Positions 1,929-44,211 of a stretch of 64,000 nucleotides of DNA are shown here, piece by piece. Source of the stretch: a phage; the sequence record PZ019084.1; one strand, written 5' to 3'. The notes beneath the pieces are model-generated. The model was not told the DNA's origin. It saw nothing but the letters and a program-made list of their open reading frames with translations, and searched no databases. Position numbers and translations under genes: made by a program. The first letter of the stretch is position 1. Each line of letters starts with the position of its first letter.

Positions 1929-1945
1929 TTTGTGTTCCTCCGTAG

Positions 1946-1990
1946 TTGATAGTTGTATAGTACCACGGAGGAACAGTCTTGTAAACAGTT
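1946..1990 (-). promoter_or_regulatory. T4-type early promoter (GTTTAC -35, TATA-like -10)
   Basis: Minus-strand GTTTAC at 1986-1981 with AT-rich upstream tract and conserved core TGGTACTATACAACTATCAACT. Confidence 0.6.
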
Positions 1991-2074
1991 TTGTGAAAAA
2001 ATTTTTAATGAATTTACAGGACCTAGAATCATCTATTTTTCTTAAGTATAGATTTATATTACTTGTATGAAAAA

Positions 2075-2090
2075 GGGACCCGGAGGTCCC
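2075..2090 (-). terminator. stable stem-loop downstream of gene 43
   Basis: gggacc-cgga-ggtccc perfect 6-bp GC stem with tetraloop. Confidence 0.5.
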
Positions 2091-2103
2091 TAGATTTATT
2101 CTA

Positions 2104-4800
2104 TCAGCCAAACAGGAAGTCTAACGAAGCTTTTTCTTCATAGTCCATACCCGCCGATTCACACATACCCGCAAGAGGTTTAACAAACGATTTTTGGAAC
2201 AAAGTTGAGTAGTCAATCCAAGACAGTACATCAGAACGAATTTCTTTTGGAAGTTCTGTGCCTGATGGCCAAGCAATGCACTTGTCACCAAATGGATTTC
2301 CTTCACGTAATGGAAGAACCATTACCTTATTTCCATCCAAAATTGGAGCTACACCTAAACCGCTAACAGCTCGACGATAAGTTAGCACACCACGAATATG
2401 GAACGGGCATTTAAATCCTGGCCAACCTTTATCGTCATATTTCGCTATATCGTTCGCAGTTTTTACTTCAGCAATAACTTTATAGTCAAGTTGACGATAT
2501 TCTTTCTCAAAGTTCTTGTAGTATTCTTGGACAGACTCTTCGCCTTCCTGAAGAATACGACGAATACTTTCTTCGAGAGCTTCTTGTACTGCTTTTGGCG
2601 TTGAACTCTGCTGAGTTTCCATACCCATGATTTTTAGATGCGGTTCAGCAAATCGCTTATCTTCCATATCATAAACGTTCAGAGCATAACGTTTTTTCGC
2701 TTTCCAAAATCCACCGACACCCTTTGAACCAAGCGGAGGGCAAGAAATAGCTTCACGGTCCATATGCATCAGATGCTCGCGGTTATTCATATAATCACAT
2801 AACTCACGATATGCAACATCAATCATAGGTTCCATCTTTTTCTTACCAAACTGATTCATGAATTCAACTAAATCATTTTGTTCTTTAAAGCGATCAAGAC
2901 CTACTTTTTCAATTACTTTATCTACACAAACATATACCGAATCAGTATCACCTGCTGCGATGAAATCTTCACCATTAGTTCCACATACTTTATTCAGATA
3001 TTCATTAATTTTGCGAGCAATCCACTGAATACCGACTTGACCGAAAATTGTGATAGCAGTAGCATTTCGCAAATCATAGTAACGGAAATGAATATTACCA
3101 AGAGCACCATAAAGACTGTTAATAAGAATTTTACGGTTCAGCTGATTTGTGTTAGCAAGTGTAGCAGCTTTTTCACATTCTTCAATCAGACTATTAAGAA
3201 CAGATTCAGTGTAATTCGACAATTCGTTTAAGAAATCATCACTGAACTTAACATATCGTTCAACTTCTGGTTTAGTTGGGCAAGACCCTGCACCTTTCAT
3301 AATAATCTTTTTAATAGCTTCGGCATTCATTTCTTCAGCGAACATTTTCTTTTTCCAATCTTTACGCTGGAAAAATACTTTAGCGATTTCCTTTGGAATG
3401 ATACCTTCTTGGTGCTTATCATACATCCATCCATTCGGAGAACAAGAATATTCATCACTTGGCTTAGGAGCTGTTCCTGCGATATATTCATGAATTGGAT
3501 GAACTTTAAACTGCCCGCGAATAGTCTCAGGACTAATGTTAACCTGACGAATAATGCTAGGATACAGAGACGTCAAGTCAAAACTCATAATGTATCGACG
3601 AGCAATCGGTTTAGGTTCAAACACAAATGCACCTGGAAAACTCTGTTTAACGTGCGAACCTTGTTGAGGAATAACCTTATGTTCACTTTTAAGTGAGTTA
3701 AAAATAATAGCATCCCAAGTTTTAATAGGACTCATTACACCAGAAAAAGGCATTTTAGCATAATAAGACATACTTAAAACTAGATCGATAAACCCACGAA
3801 TTTTATCAATTGCTTGAACTGATTCTACGTCAATGATGTTATAACTAATGTATCGTTGATGATTAGTCTCACGAAGTTTATTAATAGGACCATCGTACGG
3901 CAATTTACCTTTTTTGGTTTCATGCTGAGCAACTGATTCCAAAGAGAATGATGGCAAATTAGTAAATGCGAATTTCTTGTACAAATCTAAATAATCAAGA
4001 ATAGATACGCCATCAATCGAATAAATTTCTTTGCTACCGTACATATTTTGAATTAGTTTAGATTTTACTCGACCGATTGGAGAGAAGCGTTTCATACTGC
4101 GTTCACCGAGAACCATTTTAACACGATTCATGATATACGGAACGTCAAATCCCTCAATATTCCAACCGGTAAAAATAGCAGGTCGTTTCTGTTCCCAGAG
4201 ATTAATATATTCCATGAGCATATCACGCTCATTATCAAATGGCATATAAATTACTCGGTCAAGAATTTCTTGAGGAACTTCATCACCACCTTCACAGTCA
4301 AGCTTAGCAGCTAACTTTGCGTCCCATTTTGATACTGAACCGTACATTGAATTCAACAAATCAAAGACGTAAAAACGATCATCAATTGAATCATAATGAG
4401 TGATAGCATCAATTTCATATTCTGCTTTCATTGGGTCAGGAAATTTATCACCAGTAACCTCAATGTCACAGTTAGCTACACGAACAAATTTTCGGTCATA
4501 AACAATTTCTGAACCATATGTATCACTGATATAAGCGAGTTTAAAATCGTTCATACCGAGAGCTTCGAGACCGATGTCTTCCATTCGCTTCATCCAGTCT
4601 CGTGCATCTTTCATTGATGGAAATTTTTGAGGAGCACAGTTTTTACCATAAATGTCTTTGTATTTTGACTCTTCCTTACAATGTCTAAACATAGTCGGAA
4701 GATATTCTACTTCACGAGTACGTTCCTTTCCATTTTCATCAATATAACGCTCAACAATGTTATTTCCGACTGTTTCGATAGAGATATAAAATTCTTTCAT
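2104..4800 (-). CDS. 43: DNA polymerase (family B) with 3'-5' exonuclease
   Basis: 898 aa; exonuclease and polymerase motifs (e.g. AAGDTDSVYV); T4 gp43 length. Confidence 0.97.
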   Translation of the reverse strand: MKEFYISIETVGNNIVERYIDENGKERTREVEYLPTMFRHCKEESKYKDIYGKNCAPQKFPSMKDARDWMKRMEDIGLEALGMNDFKLAYISDTYGSEIVYDRKFVRVANCDIEVTGDKFPDPMKAEYEIDAITHYDSIDDRFYVFDLLNSMYGSVSKWDAKLAAKLDCEGGDEVPQEILDRVIYMPFDNERDMLMEYINLWEQKRPAIFTGWNIEGFDVPYIMNRVKMVLGERSMKRFSPIGRVKSKLIQNMYGSKEIYSIDGVSILDYLDLYKKFAFTNLPSFSLESVAQHETKKGKLPYDGPINKLRETNHQRYISYNIIDVESVQAIDKIRGFIDLVLSMSYYAKMPFSGVMSPIKTWDAIIFNSLKSEHKVIPQQGSHVKQSFPGAFVFEPKPIARRYIMSFDLTSLYPSIIRQVNISPETIRGQFKVHPIHEYIAGTAPKPSDEYSCSPNGWMYDKHQEGIIPKEIAKVFFQRKDWKKKMFAEEMNAEAIKKIIMKGAGSCPTKPEVERYVKFSDDFLNELSNYTESVLNSLIEECEKAATLANTNQLNRKILINSLYGALGNIHFRYYDLRNATAITIFGQVGIQWIARKINEYLNKVCGTNGEDFIAAGDTDSVYVCVDKVIEKVGLDRFKEQNDLVEFMNQFGKKKMEPMIDVAYRELCDYMNNREHLMHMDREAISCPPLGSKGVGGFWKAKKRYALNVYDMEDKRFAEPHLKIMGMETQQSSTPKAVQEALEESIRRILQEGEESVQEYYKNFEKEYRQLDYKVIAEVKTANDIAKYDDKGWPGFKCPFHIRGVLTYRRAVSGLGVAPILDGNKVMVLPLREGNPFGDKCIAWPSGTELPKEIRSDVLSWIDYSTLFQKSFVKPLAGMCESAGMDYEEKASLDFLFG

Positions 4801-4860
4801 AGATATTCCTTAGTTTATAGCCCGAGTTATTAGGCTCTTGATATATTATACTCCAAATAA

Positions 4861-4874
4861 GGGGCCGAAGCCCC
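4861..4874 (-). terminator. CUUCGG tetraloop hairpin (transcript-stabilising / terminator-like)
   Basis: ggggc-cgaa-gcccc; on the minus-strand RNA this is GGGGC-UUCG-GCCCC. Confidence 0.5.
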
Positions 4875-4878
4875 TTGC

Positions 4879-5247
4879 TTAATTACCAATCGTATATTTA
4901 GGAACGAGTTTCCATTCGTGTTTTTGTTTAAAAGAAATAACTCGGAAGTTATTGGTTAAATCTTTCATAAAAGTTCTTTGACCAGGAACGATTTCAATCA
5001 GTCCCCAATCTTCTAACAGCCACGCAATCGAATCACGGCGAACTTCATCTTCTTCTGTCATTTCAACCTGACGGCCATCCATACGAAGCATTTCTTTAAA
5101 ATGAACGATATAGTATAGTCCTTTTTTCTGAAGAATGTGGCAGGACTGATACAGAACTTTATCTTTATTATTAGCAATTCCCATACGAGTCAAAGTTTCT
5201 TTTACTTTCAGAAAATCTTCAGGTTTTTTAAGAGTAATTTCAATCAT
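4879..5247 (-). CDS. regA: translational repressor RegA
   Basis: 122 aa, matches T4 RegA in length and sequence as remembered. Confidence 0.95.
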   Translation of the reverse strand: MIEITLKKPEDFLKVKETLTRMGIANNKDKVLYQSCHILQKKGLYYIVHFKEMLRMDGRQVEMTEEDEVRRDSIAWLLEDWGLIEIVPGQRTFMKDLTNNFRVISFKQKHEWKLVPKYTIGN

Positions 5248-5248
5248 T

Positions 5249-5812
5249 TTACCATTCCAATGCTAGTTTTTTGAGTTGTTTCTGTTCTTTTACATTCTTA
5301 GTCACTTCTTTCAAAAAATCATCCGTGACTAAACCTTTTAGTTCTTTTAATACTAAAGGAAGTTTTCCATTTTTAGCAAGAATTGATTTATAGTTAATTG
5401 CATCATTTGTATTAACTTGATACCGCTTAGCAAGTAACTTAATAATCAATACTTCAGTAGAATCTTCGACCAGTTTTGCCCATTTACCATATCTTTTACC
5501 CCGAGGAACAGCAGCCATCAGATAATTAAAATGGGCTTCATCGCTTAAACCTGATCCAATTAAATTCATCGCATATACAGCTGGCATGCATTCAGGAAAT
5601 TGTGATAATGCATTCTCAACCATGTATTTTGAATAATCTTTTTGAGCAATAGAGCATTTAGTTTTATTATTAATAGCTCCAATTATTTCAAAAAATTCAT
5701 TTTCAGCTTTTTCCTTAAAAGAATCAGCAGCAGATTGGACAGCTGTCCAATCTTTTGAATACCAAGCAACTTGATGCTCGTTTAATTGAATATCATCTTC
5801 AAATAAGCTCAT
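5249..5812 (-). CDS. 62: clamp loader small subunit
   Basis: 187 aa, position between regA and 44. Confidence 0.9.
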
Positions 5813-5813
5813 A

Positions 5814-6773
5814 TCACTTCCACTGCATTTCGCATGCTAATTGAATGAAAAGATATGCTAAATGTAATTCCGTATTAGCCGCAATTCCATGATACTGGTT
5901 ATTTTCACCAACAATTTCATACATACGAATAATACTTTGCGGAGTTACGCGTGTATAGATTTCTTCGGCAAGTTTACCTACGAACCACGAATAATCAGCT
6001 GCATATTTTGGTGCTAAAGCTCTGAGCTGTTTAACATCTTTATTTTTGAGAGATTCAAGAACATCATCAATAGCACCACGATCGTTAGTAACCAGTGATA
6101 AAATACCAGCATCCAAAACACCTTTAGATGAATAACTATCGAGCTCACCAATAGTTTTACGAAAATCAGGAAAATTCTTTTTAACCAAAGCTGCTACAAC
6201 TTTCATATCAGCTATAGCAATTCCTTCATGCTTGCAGATTTCAGTTAATCGACGAATCATCTGCTTCATCATTTCAATTTTATCTTCATCAGTCGGTTGA
6301 CCGAACGTAATAACTCGGCAGCGTGACTGAAGCGGTTTAATAATACCATCAATATTGTTAGCAGTAATAATAATACTACAGTTTGAACTATAAGCTTCCA
6401 TAAAGGAACGAAGATGTCGCTGAGACTCTGCTAACCCTGAGCGGTCAAATTCATCAATAACGATTACTTTTTGACGACCATCAAATGAAGCTGCACTAGC
6501 AAAATTAGTCAAAGGACCACGAACGAAATCAATTTTACAGTCTGATCCATTCACAAACATCATATCAGCATTTACATCATGACACAATGCTTTTGCTACA
6601 GTCGTTTTACCTGTTCCTGGAGAAGGAGAATGAAGAATAATATGTGGAATCTTACCTTTACTTGTAATAGATTTAAAGGTTTCTTTATCAAAGGCGGGAA
6701 GAATACATTCATCGATAGTAGATGGACGATATTTCTGTTCAAGAATGTGTTCTTTTTCATTTACAGTAATCAT
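5814..6773 (-). CDS. 44: clamp loader ATPase subunit
   Basis: Walker A GTGKTT; start set at MITVNEK (319 aa, T4 length); the track ORF extends 5 codons further to 6788. Confidence 0.93.
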
Positions 6774-6804
6774 AATTTCCTCATTCAAGTTTTAGTGTAA
6801 ATTT

Positions 6805-6820
6805 AAGGGCCGAAGCCCTT
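6805..6820 (-). terminator. CUUCGG tetraloop hairpin
   Basis: aagggc-cgaa-gccctt between genes 45 and 44. Confidence 0.5.
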
Positions 6821-6822
6821 TA

Positions 6823-7509: not shown

Positions 7510-7564
7510 GTAATTTCCTTCAATTCAAATGAGATTTAATTTTATAACTAATTTAATAAAGCAA

Positions 7565-7954: not shown

Positions 7955-7963
7955 AATACACCT

Positions 7964-8155: not shown

Positions 8156-8165
8156 AGTTCCTCCG

Positions 8166-8173: not shown

Positions 8174-8206
8174 TGTTTATCACTCGCTGTATCAAAAGGA
8201 TATGTT

Positions 8207-8923
8207 ATGAATTATAAACTAATTTATGAAAAGTTAATCTCTAATGCTAAATCTCGAAAACTTGATTGCTATACTGAATCTCATCACATTATACCACGCT
8301 GTTTAAATGGTAGCGATGACGCTTCAAACTTAGTAGATTTAACACCAGAAGAGCACTATGTAGCTCATCAACTTTTAGTAAAAATTTATCCTTCTGAACC
8401 AAAATTAGTCTATGCTGCTAACATGATGACAGTTTCTACGAAATACGCTAAACGTAACAATAAAACTTTCGGCTGGATTCGTCGTAAACTCTGGGAAATA
8501 GAAAAGAATAAAGAGTTCTCCCAAGAGACACGAAAGAAAATGTCCGACGCAGTAGCTAATAAAGCAAGACTAACTTGTCCACATTGCGGTAAGTCTGGAT
8601 TAAGCGGGAATATGAATCGATGGCATTTTGATAACTGCCCAAATCACCCCAATCCTAAAGTTAGACCGCCAATGTCTAAAGAACACAGAAATAATATCTC
8701 AAACGGGCTTAAAGCAATCGTTCTTGAAGAAACATCATGCGAATTCTGCGGAATGATAGGCAAGAAATGCGTTATCGCAGCGCATAGAAATTTCTGCAAG
8801 AAAAATCCAAATGGACGCAAGAAAACTGAAAAGACTGGTACTTGCGTCCATTGTGGTAAAGTTACCACGTTCGGAAATTTATCAAGATGGCATAATGATA
8901 ATTGTAAATATAAACCTAGCTAA
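8207..8923 (+). CDS. freestanding HNH homing endonuclease with three C-terminal zinc-finger-like repeats
   Basis: 238 aa; HNH motif ESHHIIPRCLNGSDDASNLVDLTPEEHYVAH; three CxxC...(W)HxDNC units; opposite strand to all neighbours; 3' end overlaps the 3' end of gene 46 by 8 nt. Confidence 0.85.
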   Translation: MNYKLIYEKLISNAKSRKLDCYTESHHIIPRCLNGSDDASNLVDLTPEEHYVAHQLLVKIYPSEPKLVYAANMMTVSTKYAKRNNKTFGWIRRKLWEIEKNKEFSQETRKKMSDAVANKARLTCPHCGKSGLSGNMNRWHFDNCPNHPNPKVRPPMSKEHRNNISNGLKAIVLEETSCEFCGMIGKKCVIAAHRNFCKKNPNGRKKTEKTGTCVHCGKVTTFGNLSRWHNDNCKYKPS

Positions 8924-16515: not shown

Positions 16516-16690
16516 GGAGTTTAATTTCCTTAGCAACTGAACTAAATACAGCACGATCGCAAATCATCTGTTTATGTAACTTGAGTATAAGATAATAAAC
16601 TTCAAAACCGTTTACATAAGTAACACGAACAACATTACCATTAATAAAATAATATTGTCCCTTTTTAATTTCTTTATCAACCACAACCAT
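16508..16690 (-). CDS. hypothetical protein (60 aa)
   Basis: Small ORF just downstream of an early promoter. Confidence 0.45.
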   Translation of the reverse strand: MVVVDKEIKKGQYYFINGNVVRVTYVNGFEVYYLILKLHKQMICDRAVFSSVAKEIKLHG

Positions 16691-16717
16691 ATCAAATCCT
16701 CAAAGGCAATTCATGTG

Positions 16718-16750
16718 TTAATAATACCACAGTTTGAACTTCTTGTAAAC
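16718..16750 (-). promoter_or_regulatory. T4-type early promoter
   Basis: GTTTAC (16750-16745) and TATTAT-like -10 about 18 nt downstream. Confidence 0.5.
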
Positions 16751-16848
16751 AACTTTGTGAAAATTATTTTAGGGAATGATAAGAAGGGAACGATAGCTTA
16801 GAATGGTAATATACAGAATGTGAGAAAGAAAGGCCCAGAGGGCCCGTC

Positions 16849-23346: not shown

Positions 23347-24348
23347 TTACTTAATTAACTGTAAAGCTTGTTCAAGACGATCCAGACGATTAACAGATTC
23401 TTCCCAAATCCTTTTAGCCTGCTCATATTCTTTCTGCGCTTTATTAGAAATTTCTAGAGCTTCTTTATAAGCTTTTTCTAGTGCAATAACTTCTGGACGA
23501 ATTTCTACATGTTCAGGCGAATCATCAAGATTATCCATTAGTTCCTCAAGTGTAATTTCTTCTTTAGGAGTATTCACAATTTCATCACATTTTTGTTGGT
23601 AAATTTCTTTATCAGTCGGTAAATAAGCACATTTCACTTCACGAAGACTAACTACAATTTTATATCCTTCCCAACCGCATATATTCTTAAAAGGATACGT
23701 ATGAATATTTTCTACTGTTTCCATACAAAGTAATGCGGTTTCTAATTGACGAGTTATAGTGCTAGCAATTGAGAAAAATTTATTAATGTTCTTTTGGTTA
23801 GTTTCTGGTGTAAAAAATCCATAATTCACAAAAATAGATACTTTATTTTTATCAAGTTCATATTCTTTTATGATAATCATATCAGAAGCCAAAGGATGAA
23901 TTTGACGATAATCGCCATAACATAATTTAGAAGCTGATTTTAGAATCTGTCCTTTGAAAAGTCTGAAATTACTAATCCAACGACGAGTAAAAATATTCTC
24001 AGGGTCTTCTTTATTATTAAGATGATAAGAATTAACATCACCGAACCAATTATATCCTACTACATCTTTGGTTCGTTTAATTTCTTTCCCAAAATTACCA
24101 AGAATATCCCGATTAACCAAATATGAAAGAAGACGAGACTCTTTAAAGGTTTTCTTGATAACATCTTTATCTACACGGCTAGAAATTTTACGAATTTCAT
24201 GAATAAATTTAGTAGAAGAAACAATACCTGCATCAACACTATTGAGCCATTGATTGATAATAGAAATAACGCTATTTTGACCAAACATCGGTATAGCTTT
24301 ATCATCAATAACGCTGTTGAATGATTTGATATATTCGTTACGAGTCAT
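23347..24348 (-). CDS. hypothetical protein with C-terminal coiled coil (333 aa), paralogue
   Basis: Start trimmed to MTRNEY because an early promoter lies inside the longer ORF; shares motif FRLFKGQILKSASKL with the next gene. Confidence 0.6.
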   Translation of the reverse strand: MTRNEYIKSFNSVIDDKAIPMFGQNSVISIINQWLNSVDAGIVSSTKFIHEIRKISSRVDKDVIKKTFKESRLLSYLVNRDILGNFGKEIKRTKDVVGYNWFGDVNSYHLNNKEDPENIFTRRWISNFRLFKGQILKSASKLCYGDYRQIHPLASDMIIIKEYELDKNKVSIFVNYGFFTPETNQKNINKFFSIASTITRQLETALLCMETVENIHTYPFKNICGWEGYKIVVSLREVKCAYLPTDKEIYQQKCDEIVNTPKEEITLEELMDNLDDSPEHVEIRPEVIALEKAYKEALEISNKAQKEYEQAKRIWEESVNRLDRLEQALQLIK

Positions 24349-24375
24349 AATAATCTCCTCAGTAGAAAGTAAGAA

Positions 24376-24408
24376 CATTATACCACATCCTTGTGGCGAA
24401 GTAAACTA
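24376..24408 (-). promoter_or_regulatory. T4-type early promoter
   Basis: GTTTAC (24406-24401), 18-nt spacer, perfect TATAAT (24382-24377). Confidence 0.55.
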
Positions 24409-25434
24409 GTTTAGTGCATTTAGTGCATTGTTTAGTTTAGAACGTTGCTTCGTGAGATTTTTGACTTTTTCTTGAGCTTTTTCTAGCATCTTTTCAGCTT
24501 CTAACACTTCATTAGTTGCTTTAACGAGTTCATCATCTACTGCCTTGATAGACTTCTCAATCGCATCGGCATGCCATTTTTCAACAGGTTTAAGACTCGG
24601 ATTTTCAACAGGAAGAAAATTCACTTTATTGAATTTCCATGCATCATTATTACCTGAACTATACATCCAAAATTTAGGATCGTTTGATGAGTAATTGGAT
24701 AAATTTAAATTTAAGTTATCTTGCACTTCTTGCTTTTTCTCTTGTGTAACTTCGTCCTTTCTCAAAAATTCATATTTAAATGAAACGATCATATCAAGTT
24801 CATACGTTGTTGTATGTTCCCAATTTCGCTCAAAACGAGGTAAAATCTTAGACTGAACTGCAGCAACAACATCCATATACTTAAATGCTTCTGTCAACTG
24901 CGATTTAAGGCATTCGCAAATTGAAAGAGAATTTTTTGTATTAGGTTTAAAGCTAATTCGTGCAGTTCTGTTATTTTCTTTTAATGGTCTTACTTCCATC
25001 TGAAGAGTATAACCATCAAATTTCAGATTCTTTAAGTTAATATCAGAACCTTTTAATCGACTCGCAGTTGATAAAATTTGCTTTAATTGTCTACGGAACA
25101 GAGCAATAAATCTCCATTCAATACGATAATGATTTGGATTGAAAAATCCAGATAATAAATCGACCTTACTTTGACCAACGCCTTGAACAAATAGAGGATT
25201 TTTATAATCAATAGTTTTACAGAAATCTGTGAGCTGCTCACGAGCCGTCATTTGTGTAATATACCCCGCTTTACTAAAATTACTCACCCATTCACTGCTA
25301 TTTAGATATTTAAAATGATGAATAGCACGATTAACTTTATCAGGGTCTAAATTATTTTGACACAAAAATGTCATAACATCACGAGTATAGCTGGCATTAC
25401 GAACCATATCTTCAATTTGAGAACGAGTTTTCAT
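24406..25434 (-). CDS. hypothetical protein with C-terminal coiled coil (342 aa), paralogue
   Basis: Motif FRRQLKQILSTASRL aligned with the preceding gene; N-terminal MKTRSQIEDM. Confidence 0.6.
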   Translation of the reverse strand: MKTRSQIEDMVRNASYTRDVMTFLCQNNLDPDKVNRAIHHFKYLNSSEWVSNFSKAGYITQMTAREQLTDFCKTIDYKNPLFVQGVGQSKVDLLSGFFNPNHYRIEWRFIALFRRQLKQILSTASRLKGSDINLKNLKFDGYTLQMEVRPLKENNRTARISFKPNTKNSLSICECLKSQLTEAFKYMDVVAAVQSKILPRFERNWEHTTTYELDMIVSFKYEFLRKDEVTQEKKQEVQDNLNLNLSNYSSNDPKFWMYSSGNNDAWKFNKVNFLPVENPSLKPVEKWHADAIEKSIKAVDDELVKATNEVLEAEKMLEKAQEKVKNLTKQRSKLNNALNALN

Positions 25435-26803: not shown

Positions 26804-27331
26804 TTATGCGAGTACCGTCTTTAACCGTTCTTCAAACTTCCGAAGAGTATTTTGGCGTTCAGCTCTTTGCTTTTTGTAAGTTTCAATACGCTCTGAAATG
26901 AGAGTGTATCGTTCATTTACTGATTCTTTCATAAAATCAGGAATTTCACGAGAAGCTTTAATCTCGTCAAATTTATCAATAACAGCTTGCTCTTCAGCAA
27001 TTAAGTTATCATACATTAAAATATCTTTCTTGATGAACTCAATATCTTCTTGAGTTACACGAGATAATTTAGATGCTTTATCCTTTTTGTACTGTTCATT
27101 AGTATCACGAGACCAGTGTAATGTACGATTTTTATTCGTATTTTTGTAAATTTCTACAATACCAATCTCATCAATAATAACGATCCAATTCCAACGGGAT
27201 TTGTAAATTTGTCCTCCATCAACAGTGATTTCACCTCCGATTGAGATGTCGTTAAAGAACTTGCTTTGTGCTTCAGATTTAAATTTACCATCGTTGTAAT
27301 TTACCAAGTTGAAAATATCTTTAGCGTTCAT
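26804..27331 (-). CDS. hypothetical protein (175 aa)
   Basis: Preceded by an early promoter and leader almost identical to the one at 1928-1990. Confidence 0.6.
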   Translation of the reverse strand: MNAKDIFNLVNYNDGKFKSEAQSKFFNDISIGGEITVDGGQIYKSRWNWIVIIDEIGIVEIYKNTNKNRTLHWSRDTNEQYKKDKASKLSRVTQEDIEFIKKDILMYDNLIAEEQAVIDKFDEIKASREIPDFMKESVNERYTLISERIETYKKQRAERQNTLRKFEERLKTVLA

Positions 27332-27348
27332 TTTGTGTTCCTCCGTAG

Positions 27349-27391
27349 TTGATAGTTGTATAGTACCACAGAGGAACAGTCTTGTAAACTA
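27349..27391 (-). promoter_or_regulatory. T4-type early promoter
   Basis: GTTTAC (27389-27384); conserved core TGGTACTATACAACTATCAACT. Confidence 0.6.
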
Positions 27392-27795: not shown

Positions 27796-28764
27796 TTATT
27801 TCAGAAGAGTAACCTCAGCGATTTCTTCCCAACCGTTTTTATCGGTCATAATAAAGTCAGCAAGATAAAGAGCAGTACGCAGTGAAACATTGCGTAAACG
27901 ATTAACATTAACTTTCATCCATGATAATGCTTTATAAGTTTCTTCATCAGAAAGACCGCGCTTTTGCATCATGTCAGTTGAAAGAATAACATCTTCAACC
28001 CTGACCATAATTTCTTCATTAGTGTGAACACCCAAATCCAAATAAACCGAGCGGGACACTAATGCTTGTAAATGTGGAGCAAGTTTAGTACCACGGTCTA
28101 ATTCGCGGTCAATGTCAACGTTTGTGATAAAAACAATCGTTCCTTTAAATTCAAACTCACGGTCAATGCCTTTTTCTTCTAAGTAAGAAGACGCAGTGCT
28201 CCAGCAGACTTTACGGGTCTCTCCAGTGTCCAGAGCGGCTTTTAGAAGATTAAGAATGTCCATATCAGAGAAAACATCCACATCATCAATCAAAAGGACA
28301 GAATTCTCTTCACGATTATTCCAAAGCTGCTCATAAAGACCAATACCAGAGATTTTACCATTAATACTTTTATATTCAATGTATCCAATATCATTTGCTT
28401 TATTTAAAGCTTTATCTAAAGAATACGTTTTACCAATACCTGCTGCGCCAGAGATAATCAATGAACGAATATTTCCGTTAATAATACCATTCGTCATCAT
28501 TCCCATAACATTAAATCTTTTATTAATGCGGGTTTTCATATCTTCATACGATTCTTTAACTTCCTCAACTTTTACACCATCATATGAAATATCTGATTTG
28601 TAAACCCAAACACCGCGACGTTTACCGTCAATTTCAACAAAAACTTTACCATCTCCTTGTGCATCTACCGGAGCATTATCTGGGAACCATTCGCCTAAGA
28701 GCTCAAAAGTTCCAGAGATTTCTTTACCGAAGTAGATACCCTTATTGATAGTTACAGTTTTCAT
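27796..28764 (-). CDS. P-loop NTPase, AAA-like (322 aa)
   Basis: Walker A GAAGIGKT, Walker B VLLIDDVD, sensor-like VFITN; start trimmed to MKTVTINK downstream of an early promoter. Confidence 0.65.
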   Translation of the reverse strand: MKTVTINKGIYFGKEISGTFELLGEWFPDNAPVDAQGDGKVFVEIDGKRRGVWVYKSDISYDGVKVEEVKESYEDMKTRINKRFNVMGMMTNGIINGNIRSLIISGAAGIGKTYSLDKALNKANDIGYIEYKSINGKISGIGLYEQLWNNREENSVLLIDDVDVFSDMDILNLLKAALDTGETRKVCWSTASSYLEEKGIDREFEFKGTIVFITNVDIDRELDRGTKLAPHLQALVSRSVYLDLGVHTNEEIMVRVEDVILSTDMMQKRGLSDEETYKALSWMKVNVNRLRNVSLRTALYLADFIMTDKNGWEEIAEVTLLK

Positions 28765-28788
28765 TTTATTCTCCAAATCCGTATCAGT

Positions 28789-28830
28789 TGATAGTTGTAT
28801 AGTACCATAAAGCTTTATGCTTGTAAACCG
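28789..28830 (-). promoter_or_regulatory. T4-type early promoter
   Basis: GTTTAC (28828-28823); conserved core repeat. Confidence 0.6.
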
Positions 28831-28860
28831 TTTTGTGAAAAAATTTTGAAATAAAAAAAG

Positions 28861-28878
28861 GGAGCCCGAAGGCTCCCT
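28861..28878 (-). terminator. CUUCGG tetraloop hairpin
   Basis: gggagcc-cgaa-ggctccc immediately after the NTase-like gene stop. Confidence 0.55.
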
Positions 28879-31439: not shown

Positions 31440-31566
31440 AATTACATACTCCTTTGAATAGTATCAATAATGTTGTTCACCAGATTATAAGTAAACATTG
31501 GATAATTATATTGAATCATCACATACACAACAAACAAAACTTTCATTCTCTTCTCCTTGGCAGTTG

Positions 31567-31606
31567 ACAAGATTACTATACCATAACCTTGCCAACTTGT
31601 AAACAA
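31567..31606 (-). promoter_or_regulatory. T4-type early promoter
   Basis: GTTTAC (31604-31599) and TATAGT -10. Confidence 0.5.
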
Positions 31607-31769
31607 TTAAATGACGTTTTCAATAAAATTCTGAAGCTTTGTGTGAGCATCAACCATGATTTTCATTTCTTCCTTTGCGAAAGCTGTACCTCTTTCTCGA
31701 GCAGAATACTCATAGTCAGAAACTGCATTAGCATATTCTTCAATTAGCTTCATTAAAAACATCTGCTTT

Positions 31770-32170: not shown

Positions 32171-32403
32171 TATTCCACCACATATGAAAGAGAGAATATT
32201 GCACACGCCATGTGAGTTGCAGCTTCATCACACATATCATAACGTTTCTTAAGAAGTTCTACAAGTTCTTCACTAGTAACGTCATCCATGTTGACGAAAA
32301 AATCACCATTAATGATGACGTAGATATTTCCTTCTTGATTAAGTGCTTCAATTTTCATGATGTTCTCCTCTTTATCCGATGGTTGTATAGTATCACAGCT
32401 CAA
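32170..32403 (-). CDS. hypothetical protein (77 aa)
   Basis: Small acidic ORF. Confidence 0.45.
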
Positions 32404-32432
32404 ATGGAAAGTAAACCGGTAAAATGAAAAAA

Positions 32433-32448
32433 GTCTCCCGAAGGAGAC
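32433..32448 (-). terminator. CUUCGG tetraloop hairpin
   Basis: gtctcc-cgaa-ggagac. Confidence 0.5.
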
Positions 32449-32453
32449 TATTG

Positions 32454-35906: not shown

Positions 35907-36368
35907 TCATTGAGTTTTAATTACTGCTTTAGAAGCCTTTCCCGGTAAACGACGACTGTTGATAATTGCCATCCTGCATTGAAGCGACGGGTCTTTGAAC
36001 TTCGCATTAGGTTTACAAACTGTAAATCCAAGCCAAAGATTTCCATCTGTGATTTCTAAACGCCCAGGACGATATTCAACCCCATCAATAAAATCCTCGT
36101 CAATGTCAGGACGCGGAGGCATACTCAGGAATTCATTAACTTCTAAAACATGGTCTTTTATTTTGTGGAATAATTCAAAAACATATGTCTCATCAATCTC
36201 CCGTTGAATTGCACGATCAAGGAGATGCTGAGAATATTTTAGATGAAACGATGAGACCCCTGCTGCTTTTGATGCCTCACGAATCTCATTGTTAATTTGA
36301 CGAAACTCCGACTCAAAGTGACGACGAAGCTTATTTCGACGGATAAAAACTTCTGTGTTGATAGTCAT
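35907..36368 (-). CDS. regB: site-specific RNA endonuclease RegB
   Basis: 153 aa, matches T4 RegB. Confidence 0.9.
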   Translation of the reverse strand: MTINTEVFIRRNKLRRHFESEFRQINNEIREASKAAGVSSFHLKYSQHLLDRAIQREIDETYVFELFHKIKDHVLEVNEFLSMPPRPDIDEDFIDGVEYRPGRLEITDGNLWLGFTVCKPNAKFKDPSLQCRMAIINSRRLPGKASKAVIKTQ

Positions 36369-36387
36369 GTTATTCTCCTCTTAACTG

Positions 36388-36427
36388 ATAGAAAAATTAT
36401 ACCACAGTCAAGAGGAAAAGTAAACAG
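36388..36427 (-). promoter_or_regulatory. T4-type early promoter
   Basis: GTTTAC (36425-36420). Confidence 0.5.
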
Positions 36428-36748
36428 TTATTCTTTAAATCTAATCAATTTATTCATAGACTTTGTAACTTCTGCACGAACCTCATGTAAGTTTTTAAGC
36501 TGTTCAAGACGCTGCTCGTAGTAAGCAATTTCATCTTCTTCGAGACAGTCTTGTGAATCTTCTTTAAGATAACGTGCATAATCCTGGAAAGCTTTACGGA
36601 CTACTTCTTGGAAGTCATCAAGACTTTGAATTTTCTTAGGAGCAACAGATACACGACGAGGGGCAGTATAATACTCATAACCAAACCCTGCGCTTAATTG
36701 AGCCATTAATATTTTTCCTCTGGTTGGAACACAGCACGACAAGCCCAC
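36428..36748 (-). CDS. hypothetical protein (106 aa)
   Basis: vs.3 position. Confidence 0.5.
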
Positions 36749-39047: not shown

Positions 39048-39153
39048 GTATATCCTTTAAATGTAAATAATTTTATTCTTTAAGTTTGGGACAATTCACA
39101 CATGAATTGTCCATTTCTGTATTTATCTATTACCGAGTTCGGACTTGGCTTTA

Positions 39154-39732
39154 TTAATTACCACGGGCTGCATTAGCAACGGCGTAAGCATACTGAACAT
39201 TAGCGTCCTTAAACGTACCTTTAGAGGTATCTATTTCTGCCTTAAAGCCGCCTTTAGCCATAACATCAGCAAATTCTTTACGGAAGGCCATTGCATCAAG
39301 ACCTTTCCATGATGATTTATGCTTGGCGAATTCAAGACCAGCGTAGTTGACAGCCTTAGCTAATTTATTATCAATAACCCATTTACCAGCTTTAGGCACA
39401 AACACCGGGCCTTTCTGTTTAGAGAATAGTTTTAAATTCCAGCGACGAAGGTCACCGTCAGCTTTAACAAAAGCTGCATCCAAGTTACTAGCAACAACAT
39501 CTTGAATATGGCCAAATTTAAGCCCATCAACTTCAATATTTAGATCAGTACGCCAGCGAAGTCCTTCCCAAGCGAAAGCTTTAAAGTCGGAAGCTTTTGT
39601 GGCTAGATATCGTTCAAGTGGAGCAGTTTTAGGGTCAAAGCCGTTTCCACCACGATAGTTCCACTCGTCCTTATTAATGCCTTTGGCCTTTTCCGCAGAA
39701 GCTTCAGCGATAAATTCTTTATACGTTTTCAT
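39154..39732 (-). CDS. capsid-targeted internal protein (192 aa, IPIII-like size)
   Basis: N-terminal MKTYKEFIAEA targeting sequence. Confidence 0.7.
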   Translation of the reverse strand: MKTYKEFIAEASAEKAKGINKDEWNYRGGNGFDPKTAPLERYLATKASDFKAFAWEGLRWRTDLNIEVDGLKFGHIQDVVASNLDAAFVKADGDLRRWNLKLFSKQKGPVFVPKAGKWVIDNKLAKAVNYAGLEFAKHKSSWKGLDAMAFRKEFADVMAKGGFKAEIDTSKGTFKDANVQYAYAVANAARGN

Positions 39733-39764
39733 GTGTTTCCTTTAAATATTTTAATTAGTAACTA

Positions 39765-39802
39765 TGAATATACTATCACAGTTCTAGGAGAAAGTAAACA
39801 AC
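39765..39802 (-). promoter_or_regulatory. T4-type early promoter
   Basis: GTTTAC (39800-39795). Confidence 0.5.
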
Positions 39803-39803
39803 T

Positions 39804-40334
<531 letters not shown>

Positions 40335-40790
40335 TTAAAAGAGGCTGTTCATTATTCGGTAAAGTGAAGGACCCATCACATATTGCCATTGAGCACGAGG
40401 AATAAGAGCAAAAGCATCCATCTCTGGAATCATAACGCCATCTTTATTTTCAAAATAAGACTCGCAATAGCAATTTCTAAACATCTCATGCTCTACTGGA
40501 ATCGTATAATAAAATAACTGTAAGTCTTTATTACTAGAATATTTAAATACACCTAGGTCTTCTAGAAGGTCTGGATTATAATTGCTAAAACCGGTCTCTT
40601 CTAAGCATTCTCTTCGTGCTGCATCTAGTGCGCTCAAATCAGAATTTTCTACACGGCCTTTTGGAATATCCCAGCGATGTGCCATCATTCCAGGCTTACG
40701 AGAACCAGTAACTCGTCCCATAAATAAATCTTTATCTTCTGTCATAAAGATAATACCAGCTGATAGTGTTTTCATTTTAATTTCCTGCAT
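40335..40790 (-). CDS. nudE: Nudix hydrolase
   Basis: Nudix box GRVENSDLSALDAARRECLEETGF. Confidence 0.88.
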   Translation of the reverse strand: MQEIKMKTLSAGIIFMTEDKDLFMGRVTGSRKPGMMAHRWDIPKGRVENSDLSALDAARRECLEETGFSNYNPDLLEDLGVFKYSSNKDLQLFYYTIPVEHEMFRNCYCESYFENKDGVMIPEMDAFALIPRAQWQYVMGPSLYRIMNSLF

Positions 40791-41260
40791 TCAGTGATAA
40801 AGTTATTTAAATTTTGAGCATATTTCTTTTCATCAAAAATCTTTTGCTGCCTACGTAAACGCCATGGCATTTCAATGAACACGCACCATATTCCTGATAG
40901 TACTGCTGCTGTAAAAATATTAACAAGTATGATTAAAAGAATCCAATCTCCCGTTCTGCCTACTGGACTTTCTCCAAAGAAGCAAAATACAAATGATGTC
41001 ACAGGAAAACTAATAATATACCACAGAATCATAATCTTATCTGTGAACCAATCAGCGTTCGTTAATTTAGCGCGACCATTATGAATACACACGAATTTAT
41101 CATCTGTTGCAGTAGATGGCTTAACTGGTTGATATCCCATTCTAAACTCCCTAATCAGCAAATTTTTCATATCTTCGGAACAGCCATTCCAGTCAACTCT
41201 ATCAACTGAAATGCCATCGTCCCCATCATCTAAATCATACCAGCGAGTTTTTAAAATCAT
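40772..41260 (-). CDS. membrane protein (162 aa), tandem paralogue family
   Basis: Two TM helices; C-terminal motif ECRKLK. Confidence 0.55.
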   Translation of the reverse strand: MILKTRWYDLDDGDDGISVDRVDWNGCSEDMKNLLIREFRMGYQPVKPSTATDDKFVCIHNGRAKLTNADWFTDKIMILWYIISFPVTSFVFCFFGESPVGRTGDWILLIILVNIFTAAVLSGIWCVFIEMPWRLRRQQKIFDEKKYAQNLNNFITECRKLK

Positions 41261-41631
41261 TTAATTTTCCTACAATCACTCACAAACTCTTCCATTGATT
41301 CTTTTTCAATATAAGACATGTAGTTATTATATTCCTTTAATTGTATTTTGTAATCCTTTTTTCTTTGCCAATTTATTTTAAAATTATCATAATGAAAATA
41401 TAACATGGTACCAAAGAATGAAAATAATGAAATTGCTATAGTATAACGAAGTTCACTCCAAACTTCTATTATATCTACTATACCGCTGACATTACTGCGG
41501 ATGTTTAAAATAATACAATCAATCATTAATCCAATAAGACTACCAGCAAGAGCTGCAGCCAACGCCACAGCAAAAATTAAAAATGACTCAGAAAAAGAAT
41601 ATTTAACTTTATTTAGTTTTGGCTTTTGCAT
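41257..41631 (-). CDS. membrane protein (124 aa), tandem paralogue family
   Basis: Two TM helices; C-terminal DCRKIK. Confidence 0.55.
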   Translation of the reverse strand: MQKPKLNKVKYSFSESFLIFAVALAAALAGSLIGLMIDCIILNIRSNVSGIVDIIEVWSELRYTIAISLFSFFGTMLYFHYDNFKINWQRKKDYKIQLKEYNNYMSYIEKESMEEFVSDCRKIK

Positions 41632-42026
41632 CGTGATTCCTTAACAAATTTCATAATTTCATTAAATTCATGCATATCTAATTTAAGCTGGTGTTCCTTT
41701 TTAATCTTTTTACACTGAGCTTTCCATTCGCGTACACGTTTACGATAATGTCTTCCTTGATACCAATATCCTACCCAATTTACAGGTACCAATAAAAATG
41801 GAACTACTAATGGAAGAATTAATACTAACAAAAATATTACGCCAGATTCAATATCAGTCATAAAGTCTATAACCATTCCAATAATCAATAGAATTACAAA
41901 TGATATAGCTGTCACAGGACCTATTAATACATCAGTAGGAATTAGCTGGCGCTTTAATTCATACTTCACAGGTTTACTTGGAAGGTATAGTGATGGCTTT
42001 AACATATTCTCTACATTCCTTAACAA
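41613..42026 (-). CDS. membrane protein (137 aa), tandem paralogue family
   Basis: Two TM helices; C-terminal ESRCK. Confidence 0.55.
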   Translation of the reverse strand: MLRNVENMLKPSLYLPSKPVKYELKRQLIPTDVLIGPVTAISFVILLIIGMVIDFMTDIESGVIFLLVLILPLVVPFLLVPVNWVGYWYQGRHYRKRVREWKAQCKKIKKEHQLKLDMHEFNEIMKFVKESRCKSQN

Positions 42027-42582
42027 ATTTTTCTAATAATAAATCGCTTTCAAAACTAGGATTTTCCACGAATTTATCAAAAAGATCATCAACAATATTC
42101 AAGATATTCCTTTTACTAAGAATACGTTTATTTTCATGTTTCGTTTCAGAATCAACTATAAGAGTAAAGAAATATTTCTTTCCCTGAAATTTTACTGTAG
42201 TATCAATATAGAATAAATTTGACTTTTGTAAGTTACGTTTAAACCATGCGTCACTTAAACTATAAACACCGAGATAATCAAAATCGTCGTTTAAATAACA
42301 TACTGTCCATTCAGGAGAAATGAAATCAGTAAATTCAACATCAAAATCACACGTCAATGAATGAATTGATTCAATACTGTTAATAAGTATTCCAGGGCGT
42401 ATTAAAGACTTTTTACCTCTAGAAAATCTTCCAGAAAGACTTTCATCAGTTTCATATGAAGACCCCCAATAGTAATTACGTCCTTCTGCCATACGTTTAA
42501 GAGCATTTAGTAATTGGTCTGGAACATCAACCTGTCTTTGGAACTCTTCAAACATTGAATTGAAATCACTTTGCATTTTCAT
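41974..42582 (-). CDS. hypothetical protein (202 aa)
   Basis: Minus-strand ORF. Confidence 0.55.
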   Translation of the reverse strand: MKMQSDFNSMFEEFQRQVDVPDQLLNALKRMAEGRNYYWGSSYETDESLSGRFSRGKKSLIRPGILINSIESIHSLTCDFDVEFTDFISPEWTVCYLNDDFDYLGVYSLSDAWFKRNLQKSNLFYIDTTVKFQGKKYFFTLIVDSETKHENKRILSKRNILNIVDDLFDKFVENPSFESDLLLEKFVKECREYVKAITIPSK

Positions 42583-42603
42583 TCCTATTTACTCCAAGTA
42601 ATA

Positions 42604-42617
42604 GGGGCCGAAGCCCC
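42604..42617 (-). terminator. CUUCGG tetraloop hairpin
   Basis: ggggc-cgaa-gcccc. Confidence 0.5.
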
Positions 42618-42623
42618 TTATCA

Positions 42624-43217
42624 TTATTTCAGAGAATTAATATATTCCTGAACATCGGCAGAGGTAGTTTCAACCCCGGAAATATTACCGTTAAAGGTTT
42701 CAACTCGAGCAAGGGTATCTTCAATATCAACCTTAGTCAGCGCTGCGATTTCAACTACATCATCGGCAGTACTAATTCCAAGGGCATTTGCTGCACGAGT
42801 TTCACGGATATATTCCAATTTAACTGCAAGTTCTTGGCGAGCATCATCTAATTCAACTACTTTCTTGGCGATTTCAATTCGCATTTCAGCATAACCGTCA
42901 GCTTTAGTAGTCAACTGCTCAGCTGTTCGACGATATAGTAAACCGAGTTTAGCATGCATTGTTACATCTTGACCTTCAGAAAGAAGTTTACGAATTTCAC
43001 GCTCTTTTGATTCGGCTTGTCGATTCTTTTCGACAATAAGTTCACGAATACGTTTTTCTTCATTAATAGATTTAACAGAAGCAGTTTTTAGATCTTTAAT
43101 TTTATCAAGCAGTTTTGCTGCTGCAGCAGTATACTGTTCTTCAACAGATAGATTTTTAGCCATAGCAGAACCAAGTTTAGTGCGAATAAACTCAACAATT
43201 TTCTTCAGTGTGTTCAT
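42624..43217 (-). CDS. coiled-coil protein, PspA/IM30-like architecture (197 aa)
   Basis: Long amphipathic helical repeats; family assignment tentative. Confidence 0.5.
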
Positions 43218-43260
43218 AGTATTTCCTTAGGTTAATTGAGATTTAAAATCCGTGGGAGTA

Positions 43261-43437
43261 TTATACTCCAAAGAGTTTATAAACTATTTCGACATCGCCT
43301 TTTGCTGCTTTATAACCTTCAGCCCAGGATACAACCGAATTTTTATCTGAAGATTCAAACTCTGGCATTGGGCTTTCACCAATATTCACGCAGTATGTTT
43401 CTTCATTCTCGTCAAACCAAATAATTAAAGTAGTCAT
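43261..43437 (-). CDS. hypothetical protein (58 aa)
   Basis: Sub-threshold ORF MTTLIIWFDENEETYCVNIGESPMPEFESSDKNSVVSWAEG... Confidence 0.4.
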   Translation of the reverse strand: MTTLIIWFDENEETYCVNIGESPMPEFESSDKNSVVSWAEGYKAAKGDVEIVYKLFGV

Positions 43438-43511
43438 TTATTTCTCCGTTTCTGTATTTGTTTTGATAAGTCTATAATAACACCATCCTTGGTGTTTGTA
43501 CATCATTATTT

Positions 43512-43844
43512 TTAATTTTTCCAACTTAACAACTTGTAGTGTCCTTCATTCATACGTGGTTTATCCCAAGAAATACTAATATATGATTCACTGTCAATAG
43601 AAGTCGCCGGGTTTTTCTCTACCGTAAGACCTTCACTTTCCAGCCATTCAATAGTATTTGCGCATAAATCGGAAGAACACCTCATCGGAAACCGGCAAGA
43701 TTTTTCACCTTTAGATGCAGCGTTATACATCTTTTCTAAAATACGCTTTTGCACGTTTTTAAAAATAGTTTCAGCGGATTCTTCAGATTTTTTATTCAGT
43801 TCAATATAAAGACTCATAACATTCTTCTCATTAATAGGGCTCAT
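43512..43844 (-). CDS. hypothetical protein (110 aa)
   Basis: Minus-strand ORF. Confidence 0.5.
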   Translation of the reverse strand: MSPINEKNVMSLYIELNKKSEESAETIFKNVQKRILEKMYNAASKGEKSCRFPMRCSSDLCANTIEWLESEGLTVEKNPATSIDSESYISISWDKPRMNEGHYKLLSWKN

Positions 43845-43872
43845 AATATCTCAATCATGAGCCTGTGTAAAC

Positions 43873-44148
43873 TTATTTCATATTATTGAAATATTCTTCT
43901 GCGATTTCGTCGTTATCATGGTAAACTTTAGAAGACAGTTTAACATAACCTTCAGCAGTGAACATGTTAATCACAACCTTTACAGTATACCACTGACCGT
44001 CTTCATTACCCATTACTGCGTAAGTTTCAAACATCGGATGGTCAGGACCGATAACTTTAATATCATTCACTGTACGACCGAAATCTTCTGAAACGCATTT
44101 CATAAAGAAGTTGAACAGTTCGCCGTAATTATCCATTTTATTCTCCAA
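43873..44148 (-). CDS. hypothetical protein (91 aa)
   Basis: ORF downstream of an early promoter. Confidence 0.5.
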   Translation of the reverse strand: MENKMDNYGELFNFFMKCVSEDFGRTVNDIKVIGPDHPMFETYAVMGNEDGQWYTVKVVINMFTAEGYVKLSSKVYHDNDEIAEEYFNNMK

Positions 44149-44168
44149 GTTGTTTTCAGTATCAGTAG

Positions 44169-44211
44169 TTGATAGTTGTATAGTACCATGGAAGAACAGA
44201 GATGTAAACCG
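44169..44211 (-). promoter_or_regulatory. T4-type early promoter
   Basis: GTTTAC (44209-44204); conserved core repeat. Confidence 0.6.

Follow-up and report, generated by a model that had tools for sequence, protein, structure and literature searches.

The stretch of phage DNA analyzed here (sequence record PZ019084.1, 64,000 nucleotides [nt], hereafter the window) carries four exact copies of a 22-mer that are very probably parts of T4 early promoter-leader cassettes of the promoter-early stem-loop (PeSL) type, and the near-identity of these cassettes in front of unrelated genes is very probably due to strong functional constraint combined with ectopic exchange on occasion and the insertion of cassette-borne genes. 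The window comes from a Tequatrovirus (T4/RB51-like), shows 96-97% DNA identity to the genomes of RB51, RB68, and Ozark, and spans approximately gene 42 to the baseplate genes, with the prereplicative (early) genes on the minus strand. The T4 program is governed in its first minutes by early promoters, and in T4-like phages the repetition of these promoters is accepted as one source of modular gene exchange. The element itself is already known from the T4 promoter literature and from the PeSL papers, and a possible role as a place where genes are shuffled has been published before. Breakpoints relative to other phages were taken from chained BLAST alignments of the window with seven comparators, namely, T4, RB51, RB14, Shfl2, REP4, G50, and ECML-134.

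The 22-mer AGTTGATAGTTGTATAGTACCA is found at 1944-1965, 27347-27368, 28786-28807, and 44167-44188, with 0 copies expected by chance, and all copies are functionally oriented on the minus strand, on which the repeat reads TGGTACTATACAACTATCAACT. The window contains no further copy with up to three mismatches, and neither exact nor such inexact copies appeared in 100 dinucleotide-preserving shuffles. A variant core at 48318-48339 on the minus strand (TGATACTATTACCCTATCAACT) has five mismatches to the 22-mer. These matches bear out the first-pass annotation of the window, which had listed four recurring cores and a variant near 48318. It had also described two copies as alike over about 57 nt, apart from one mismatch, through the ribosome binding site and ATGAA; the real extent is 63 nt, since 1924-1986 and 27327-27389 are the same but for one base (43 nt exact) from the G of the −35 to ATGAA. 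For most copy pairs, the exact homology is just 22-24 nt. That the near-identical copies precede unrelated open reading frames (ORFs), as had been claimed, is confirmed by the proteins behind the 63-nt pair, which are unrelated (BLASTP E = 9.3), and by the six cassette-proximal proteins compared, which fall into six separate PHROG families, one of them internal protein IPI. A search of the window against Rfam returned 11 tRNAs only and no family for the cassettes. A scan of IMG/VR with the 22-mer yielded just 20 stretches from a few T4-like contigs, too few to survey the downstream genes.

The anatomy of an early promoter can be read directly around each copy. From 5' to 3' on the minus strand, the layout consists of an A/T-rich UP element (AAAATTTTTTCACAAAAC), a −35 sequence GTTTAC(A/T), a variable spacer of 14 nt, and an extended −10 sequence TG(G/A)TAnnAT, followed by a conserved start region, a Shine-Dalgarno (SD) sequence of the GGAG type, and an ATG located about 58 nt past the −35 G, with a leader of about 22 nt. 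The 22-mer corresponds to the extended −10 and the start region, and GTTTACA sits 14 nt 5' of it. The UP sequence AAAATTTTTTCACAAAAC lies 5' of copies 1, 3, and 4, and a related A/T-rich sequence is present at most other promoters; the UP region of copy 2 is nrdC.9 coding sequence, unlike that of the other copies. T4 early promoters have been described as containing an UP element, a −35 GTTTAC, a TGn motif, a −10, and extra consensus regions (Hinton 2010, PMC2988021; Nolan et al. 2006, PMC1524935, covering T4-like phages). The cassettes share with them the GTTTAC, the 17-bp spacing, the TGn, the TAnnAT, the A/T-rich UP element, and the position on the early strand 5' of early genes, and nothing essential differs. 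The first-pass assignment to early promoter and leader cassettes of a T4-type phage is thereby upheld, its plus-strand sequence being the reverse complement of the element.

The pattern GTTTACW-N14-TGRTANNAT matched the window 11 times, always on the minus strand and at all four 22-mer copies (0 matches expected), and two relaxed sites, at 31604 (TATAGT) and 43872 (no TG), bring the total to 13 promoters. For annotation, where the practical value of the result lies, this places 13 early transcription units in the window. The distance from the −35 G to the ATG is 57-60 nt in 9 of the 13 and 57-73 nt overall, and an SD sequence and an ATG are present in every cassette. The promoter-proximal genes are ORF83 (followed by imm.1 and imm), 55.6, nrdC.4, nrdC.8, nrdC.10, mobD.2, mobD.5, regB, ipIII, an ORF in the e.7 slot, e.8, tRNA.4, and ipI, of which ORF83, ipI, and the e.7-slot ORF are flagged as cassette-borne accessory genes. 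The cassettes are as follows.

1926-2010, minus strand: cassette 1 (ORF83), with UP element, −35 GTTTACA at 1980-1986, TGG plus TACTAT, core at 1944-1965, SD GGAGG, and ATG at 1928-1926
16688-16774, minus strand: 55.6 early promoter cassette
24346-24430, minus strand: nrdC.4 early promoter cassette
27329-27389, minus strand: cassette 2 (nrdC.8), differing from cassette 1 by one base (C/T), with a G:U pair kept
28762-28852, minus strand: cassette 3 (nrdC.10), with UP element, −35, core at 28786-28807, and leader GGAGAATAAAATG matching the RegB/S1 consensus
31544-31628, minus strand: mobD.2 early-type promoter (TATAGT)
32356-32440, minus strand: mobD.5 early promoter cassette, with an abutting intrinsic terminator at 32432-32449
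36366-36449, minus strand: regB early promoter cassette, invariant in 8 genomes
39730-39823, minus strand: ipIII early promoter cassette, with replacement edges at 39700-39757
43815-43896, minus strand: early-type promoter (no TG) of the e.7-slot ORF, the right edge of replacements in all comparators
44134-44233, minus strand: cassette 4 (e.8), with UP element, −35, core at 44167-44188, and a longer leader containing GGAGAATAAAATG
48300-48384, minus strand: tRNA.4 early promoter cassette, with the variant core at 48318-48339
48664-48750, minus strand: ipI early promoter cassette (Pfam IPI_T4)

Only the T4-specific extended pattern discriminates such sites. A scan with the generic sigma-70 consensus was rejected as a detector because it found 83 sites with 85 expected, and a position weight matrix derived from 12 sites scored nothing above 18 bits except its own seeds and therefore contributed no new information.

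Synteny with T4 is equally direct. T4 has the same four exact 22-mers at the syntenic imm.1, nrdC.8, nrdC.10, and e.8 positions, plus a copy with three mismatches at denV, and the orthologous nrdC.8 and nrdC.10 sites of the Yersinia phage fPS-90 are annotated as 'predicted early promoter'. Positions orthologous to T4 early promoters are also occupied by the regB, ipIII, mobD.5, nrdC.4, and 55.6 cassettes. The four copies are orthologous by position to T4 promoters and are therefore conserved early promoters, not new insertions in this genome.

The leaders carry a signal of their own. GGAG is present in the SD region of 9 of the 13 promoter-proximal genes, compared with 11 of 87 other genes (p = 4e-5). 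The sequence GGAGRAYARAA, given as the consensus of strong RegB/S1 sites by Durand et al. 2006 as quoted in PMC3014915, has three matches in the window (0.54 expected), all of them in cassette leaders.

28764-28774, 44136-44146, and 48302-48312, minus strand: GGAGRAYARAA matches in the leaders of nrdC.10, e.8, and tRNA.4 (GGAGAATAAAA)

These three leaders fit the consensus exactly, whereas the leader shared by nrdC.8 and ORF83 (GGAGGAACACA) departs from it. Since the sole three consensus matches are cassette leaders, part of the likeness among leaders probably reflects the SD and RegB-site signal of early mRNAs. We suggest that the host sigma-70 RNA polymerase would fire the cassettes immediately after infection, that the GGAG leader would give efficient translation, and that the three leaders with the RegB/S1 consensus could allow the later inactivation of early mRNAs through RegB cleavage.

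It might be argued that the copies are alike from selection only, through promoter and translation constraint at every position, with no exchange and no role in gene shuffling. The 22-mer is indeed nearly invariant at orthologous sites in 8 genomes whose flanks differ by about 4-5%, the T4 early promoters have a known extended consensus (PMC2988021), and the junction-level breakpoint test described below was not significant. However, the other functional early promoters in the window vary freely in the spacer, the start region, and the leader, and the 63-nt identity includes the non-consensus spacer and is thus not required for function. Moreover, orthologous loci carry cassettes of different paralogue types, chimeric cassettes exist, the imm.1 locus is composed of mosaic segments, and insertion joints fall inside cassettes. 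We therefore consider selection only to be a very improbable explanation, and the exchange events that speak for constraint plus exchange are as follows.

One of these concerns the imm.1 locus. T4 has imm.1 directly behind the promoter, with the spacer AGACTGTTCTTCCA and an nrdC.10-like leader; in RB14, the spacer and the leader are of the e.8 type; in the window and RB51, they are of the nrdC.8 type and are followed by an extra ORF of 83 amino acids (aa), ORF83, which lies between the imm.1 promoter and imm.1. Each of the three spacer/leader variants (T4, RB14, and the window) matches a cassette elsewhere in these genomes. The joints of the ORF83 insertion are inside the promoter on the left and at the imm.1 ATG on the right.

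1677-1928, minus strand: ORF83, behind cassette 1, whose T4 counterpart drives imm.1
2074-2091, minus strand: intrinsic terminator after gene 43, about 90 nt 5' of cassette 1

ORF83 (phrog_18567), for which a Pfam search gave no match, is found in only 38 of 50,697 phage records. By comparison, most of the 8 kb around it is covered by 491 records. The 38 comprise 31 Tequatrovirus records at identities of at least 95%, at about one same position among the matches listed, and 7 Dhakavirus records at about 54% identity. In the Dhakavirus IME08, the homologue (54% identical) is found in the mobD/rI region, preceded by a terminator and an early promoter of its own. One and the same cassette, from −35 to ATGAA, precedes three genes among these phages: nrdC.8 in most records, ORF83, and the unrelated 37-aa ndd.4 of RB14.

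The nrdC.10 cassette occurs in three states. It has no insert in the window and T4; it has a 66-aa ORF in G50, with joints at the −35 and the SD; and in ECML-134 it has two ORFs joined at ...ACAACTATCAA and then a second promoter, identical in its −10 and leader to the promoter at the internal-protein (IP) locus of the same phage. For both inserts, one joint is at the −35 or the core and the opposite joint is at the SD. At the IP locus itself, the gene between the cassettes at 48726 and 48360 is swapped exactly from leader to −35 in RB51, RB14, and Shfl2, with edges at 48377 and 48632-48643. The RB14 promoter with its −35 G at 47329 is a chimera that joins a spacer of the tRNA.4 type to a leader of the ipI type; in Shfl2, the 22-mer core is duplicated in tandem at the promoter whose −35 G is at locus position 4362; and ECML-134 (−35 G at 16602, 16122, and 36074) has identical −10 and leader sequences at two distant loci. 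Overall, the alignments place joints inside cassettes at 1939, 28774-28822, 39700-39757, 43814-43873, 48297-48377, and 48632-48643, and from these sequences we infer that recombination gave rise to the chimeric cassettes.

The probable course of events is that the cassettes, as dispersed direct repeats in a highly recombinogenic genome, would occasionally exchange segments with one another (ectopic conversion) and would also act as joints at which an ORF with its own cassette could be inserted, lost, or swapped; near-identical copies in front of unrelated genes would then result from ectopic conversion and cassette-joint gene exchange. With ORF83 present in only 31 Tequatrovirus records and three gene contents at the nrdC.10 cassette, the genes flanked by cassettes are not fully syntenic and invariant among these phages. 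The first-pass claim that the cassettes bound variable genes holds for ORF83 and the nrdC.10 inserts but not for the genes nrdC.8, nrdC.10, and e.8 behind three of the exact copies, which are present in every comparator.

Whether the cassettes are also recombination hotspots is a different matter. The seven comparators gave 66 unique edges of insertions/deletions (indels) or replacements in the early region, and 13 of these fall in cassette windows, which make up 3.1% of the region; this is about 6-fold above random positions (binomial p = 1e-7). However, breakpoints in the early region sit at gene boundaries generally. Edges were present at 6 of the 13 gene starts with a cassette and at 27 of the 87 without one, which is not a significant difference (odds ratio 1.9, p = 0.35). 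Several further points weigh against the explanation given here. Many indels involve homing endonucleases or introns or are located at junctions that have no promoter; 7 of the 13 cassettes show no rearrangement in the seven comparators; and the 22-24 nt of exact homology between most pairs is short for efficient T4 homologous recombination. In addition, the immediate-early activity of the 13 promoters via sigma-70 is a probable one whose start sites and early timing are taken from the consensus and from T4 orthology. The cassettes are to be counted among real exchange sites, but because the gene-start test is non-significant and many indels are unrelated to promoters, a special status as hotspots is not demonstrated in this sample. 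Of the first-pass proposal, the mobile promoter cassettes stand, in agreement with the PeSL idea (PMC2839356, PMC4122927) and with the joints inside cassettes, whereas the recombination hotspots are not supported as proposed, and the label 'hotspot', with its weak statistical support, should be used with caution.

Homing endonucleases or introns account for at least eight of the indels, which involve the mobB-like ORF at 8207-8923, T4 mobB, mobC, mobD, I-TevII, and a seg-like gene. The mobB-like ORF (8207-8923, plus strand) encodes a homing endonuclease, is located between 45.2 and gene 46 but in the opposite orientation, and is without a counterpart in T4 and RB14. Repeated intrinsic terminators, which bound some of the other events, appear to act as exchange joints too.

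45033-45056 and 45592-45615, minus strand: near-identical intrinsic terminators, AGCCCCGACCGAAAGGT[C/T]GGGGCTTTTTAGT, flanking a 157-aa ORF
45064-45537: the 157-aa ORF, the interval of which is almost exactly missing from Shfl2 and RB14
44348-44366, minus strand: terminator at the edge of a T4/RB51 deletion

PeSLs have been described as mobile regulatory cassettes, first in RB49 and phi1 (Arbiol et al. 2010, PMC2839356) and then in T4 and PST (Comeau et al. 2014, PMC4122927), where the pattern is TTTACW-N17-TAYWAT and PeSL-associated exchanges have been reported (PMC4122927). The cassettes of the window resemble them in combining an early promoter, a stem-loop, and an SD/ATG, in being concentrated in hyperplastic regions, and in having indel and replacement joints between the −35, the −10, and the SD, and the exchange evidence matches the PeSL model of RB49/phi1 as extended to T4/PST. 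Their stem-loops, too, are located either 5' of the promoter, as with the terminators at 28859-28878 and 32432-32449, or across the −10.

28859-28878, minus strand: intrinsic terminator with a UUCG loop, abutting the UP element of cassette 3 in a PeSL-like layout of terminator plus promoter

The published stem-loops of T4/PST lie upstream of the promoter, whereas about half of the promoters here have a −10-spanning one as well, as in RB49. A further difference from PeSLs is that the breakpoint association in the window is not significantly above that of ordinary gene junctions. Repeated promoter-like elements have also been reported at the internal-protein loci of T-even phages (Repoila et al. 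1994, as cited in PMC2839356 and PMC4122927). As far as those citing papers describe them, they resemble the ipI/tRNA.4 and ipIII cassettes, which bound internal-protein genes that have been exchanged for one another among RB51, RB14, Shfl2, ECML-134, and the window, but the cassette type here also occurs outside the IP loci, at imm.1, nrdC.8, nrdC.10, e.8, and ndd.4.

A stronger form of the PeSL model would regard the cassettes as dedicated mobile elements that excise together with their ORF as mini-circles, perhaps with the aid of a specific protein, and that chiefly drive the plasticity of the hyperplastic regions. Mini-circles formed by PeSL × PeSL recombination have been shown for RB49/phi1 (PMC2839356), and the T4/PST exchanges mentioned above are associated with PeSLs; the two inserted ORFs between two cassettes in ECML-134, and the ORF83 family, which occupies different loci in two genera and has a terminator and an early promoter of its own in front of it, would also suit such elements. 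Against this, there is no significant enrichment of breakpoints over ordinary gene junctions, most of the events seen here are explained by homing endonucleases or are cassette-free, and the exact homology of most pairs is limited to 22-24 nt. We regard this strong form as improbable and prefer functional constraint with occasional exchange.

The second feature of the cassettes is their predicted RNA structure. The region from the −35 to ATG+5 was folded as RNA, as present in a read-through transcript, and 7 of the 13 promoters gave a predicted hairpin with the −10 in the loop (z-score ≤ −2.2), one arm being in the spacer and the other in the leader. The folds, with their minimum free energies (MFE), are as follows.

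1933-1975, minus strand: ORF83 hairpin of cassette 1 (−35 G at 1986), left arm in the spacer at 1962-1975, −10 in the loop, right arm including the SD at 1933-1946, MFE −22.4 kcal/mol, z −6.2
27336-27378, minus strand: nrdC.8 hairpin of cassette 2 (−35 G at 27389), MFE −20.8 kcal/mol, z −4.4
31562-31597, minus strand: mobD.2 hairpin (−35 G at 31604), MFE −19.0 kcal/mol, z −3.9
36373-36419, minus strand: regB hairpin over the SD GAGGAG (−35 G at 36425), MFE −22.4 kcal/mol, z −4.8
43838-43863, minus strand: hairpin of the e.7-slot ORF (−35 G at 43872), MFE −14.3 kcal/mol, z −2.8
48323-48354, minus strand: tRNA.4 hairpin (−35 G at 48360), MFE −14.2 kcal/mol, z −2.2
48687-48716, minus strand: ipI hairpin (−35 G at 48726), MFE −14.8 kcal/mol, z −3.2

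In the comparison with other gene starts, z < −2.5 was reached at 5 of 13 promoters and at 3 of 87 promoter-less controls (p = 0.0008). The three control hits, all with z < −4, are the starts at 40298 (gene e), 20242 (gene 49), and 50149 (gene 1, dNMP kinase), and the control scan thus independently recovered the gene e and gene 49 hairpins, which are known cases of SD sequestration (PMC3014915).

In the ORF83, nrdC.8, and regB hairpins, the right arm is the SD itself, and the folds predict an unpaired SD fraction of 0.62-0.74 for the transcript that the cassette itself initiates but of just 0.01-0.06 for the read-through RNA. Smaller drops in SD accessibility are predicted for e.8 and nrdC.10; folding gave no promoter-spanning hairpin for cassette 3 (nrdC.10), and cassette 4 (e.8; 44134-44233, minus strand) has a weak, bulged anti-SD pairing of GTTCTTCCA with TTGGAGAAT. 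In the Dhakavirus orthologue of nrdC.8, an SD-covering hairpin is kept with other arm sequences (CTCCAGTAG/CTACTGGAG, z = −3.5), and the orthologous nrdC.8 promoter of Mosigvirus has a different hairpin (AGGTCTAT/ATAGACCT) by which the −10 is still bracketed. The T4 denV hairpin has the arms CTCCTGTAG/CTACAGGAG, the right one being the SD. Across the paralogous cassettes, the stems sit in different registers around the −10.

A precedent for such folding is provided by T4 genes e, 49, soc, and I-TevI, in which a hairpin buries the SD in upstream transcripts and an internal late promoter leads to late-only translation (Uzan and Miller 2010, PMC3014915). The ORF83, nrdC.8, and regB cassettes, as well as T4 denV and Dhakavirus nrdC.8, would be alike in combining a predicted hairpin that includes the SD/AUG with an internal promoter, the own transcript of which is without the 5' arm. 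The internal promoter of the known genes, however, is a T4 late promoter (TATAAATA), whereas here it is an early sigma-70 promoter, which predicts early-only translation from the own promoter only. The promoter-embedded SD hairpins are therefore an analogue, not a member, of the gene e/49/soc/I-TevI class.

On the basis of these folds, we tentatively propose, with somewhat less than even confidence, that the spacers of many T-even early promoters serve as anti-leader, and often anti-SD, sequences. In about half of the cassettes, the spacer is complementary to the leader, so that a read-through transcript would fold with the −10 in the loop, and in several of them this hairpin would bury the SD; the cassette's own transcript would start inside the loop and stay open. 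The read-through RNA would thus be folded and untranslated, and maybe shielded from RegB, and the own short transcript alone would be translated. The enrichment of hairpins (p = 0.0008) and the nrdC.8 hairpin kept in another genus with different arms are compatible with such a gate. On the other side, 6 of the 13 promoters gave no significant hairpin on folding and 4 of the 7 hairpins leave the SD out, and because of this, SD occlusion is not the general role of the hairpins.

It has been proposed for RB49 that the PeSL stem-loops located between the −35 and −10, or over the −10, are attenuators (PMC2839356). Applied to the window, the hairpins would attenuate or terminate upstream transcripts, or act as barriers that define RNA 3' ends or processing, rather than gate translation. 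An RB49 PeSL stem-loop lowered the expression of a downstream lacZ gene (PMC2839356), and the four hairpins clear of the SD would be in keeping with this function. However, none of the 7 hairpins is followed by a U tract, by which intrinsic termination is ruled out as a simple reading; canonical U-tract terminators exist separately, just 5' of cassettes; and the right arm is the SD itself in three cassettes, plus T4 denV and Dhakavirus nrdC.8. We thus consider the attenuator role rather unlikely. A role of the hairpins in RNA is more plausible than one as DNA cruciforms signaling recombination, given the predicted loops of 4-15 nt and the transcript-dependent logic.

A gate restricting translation to the own promoter is absent from the T4 early-promoter and PeSL literature that we checked (the T4 genome review by Miller et al. 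2003 excepted), and it appears to be a mildly new angle. If it is true, each cassette would form an independent unit of early-only expression and would mirror the late-only gating of genes e, 49, soc, and I-TevI, which would explain how cassettes can move between genomic contexts without misexpression. If functional, the anti-SD hairpins would provide a simple rule for insulating portable phage cassettes from upstream transcription.

Two minor observations concern the neighborhood of the cassettes. The nrdC.10 protein (322 aa; 27799-28764, minus strand), the function of which is unannotated in T4, has weak, sub-threshold matches to AAA/STAND NTPase domains (AAA_14 and nSTAND3). Eleven tRNA genes are clustered at 46299-47317 (minus strand); the neighboring content varies among relatives, and a homing endonuclease is located within the tRNA cluster in RB51 and near it in ECML-134.

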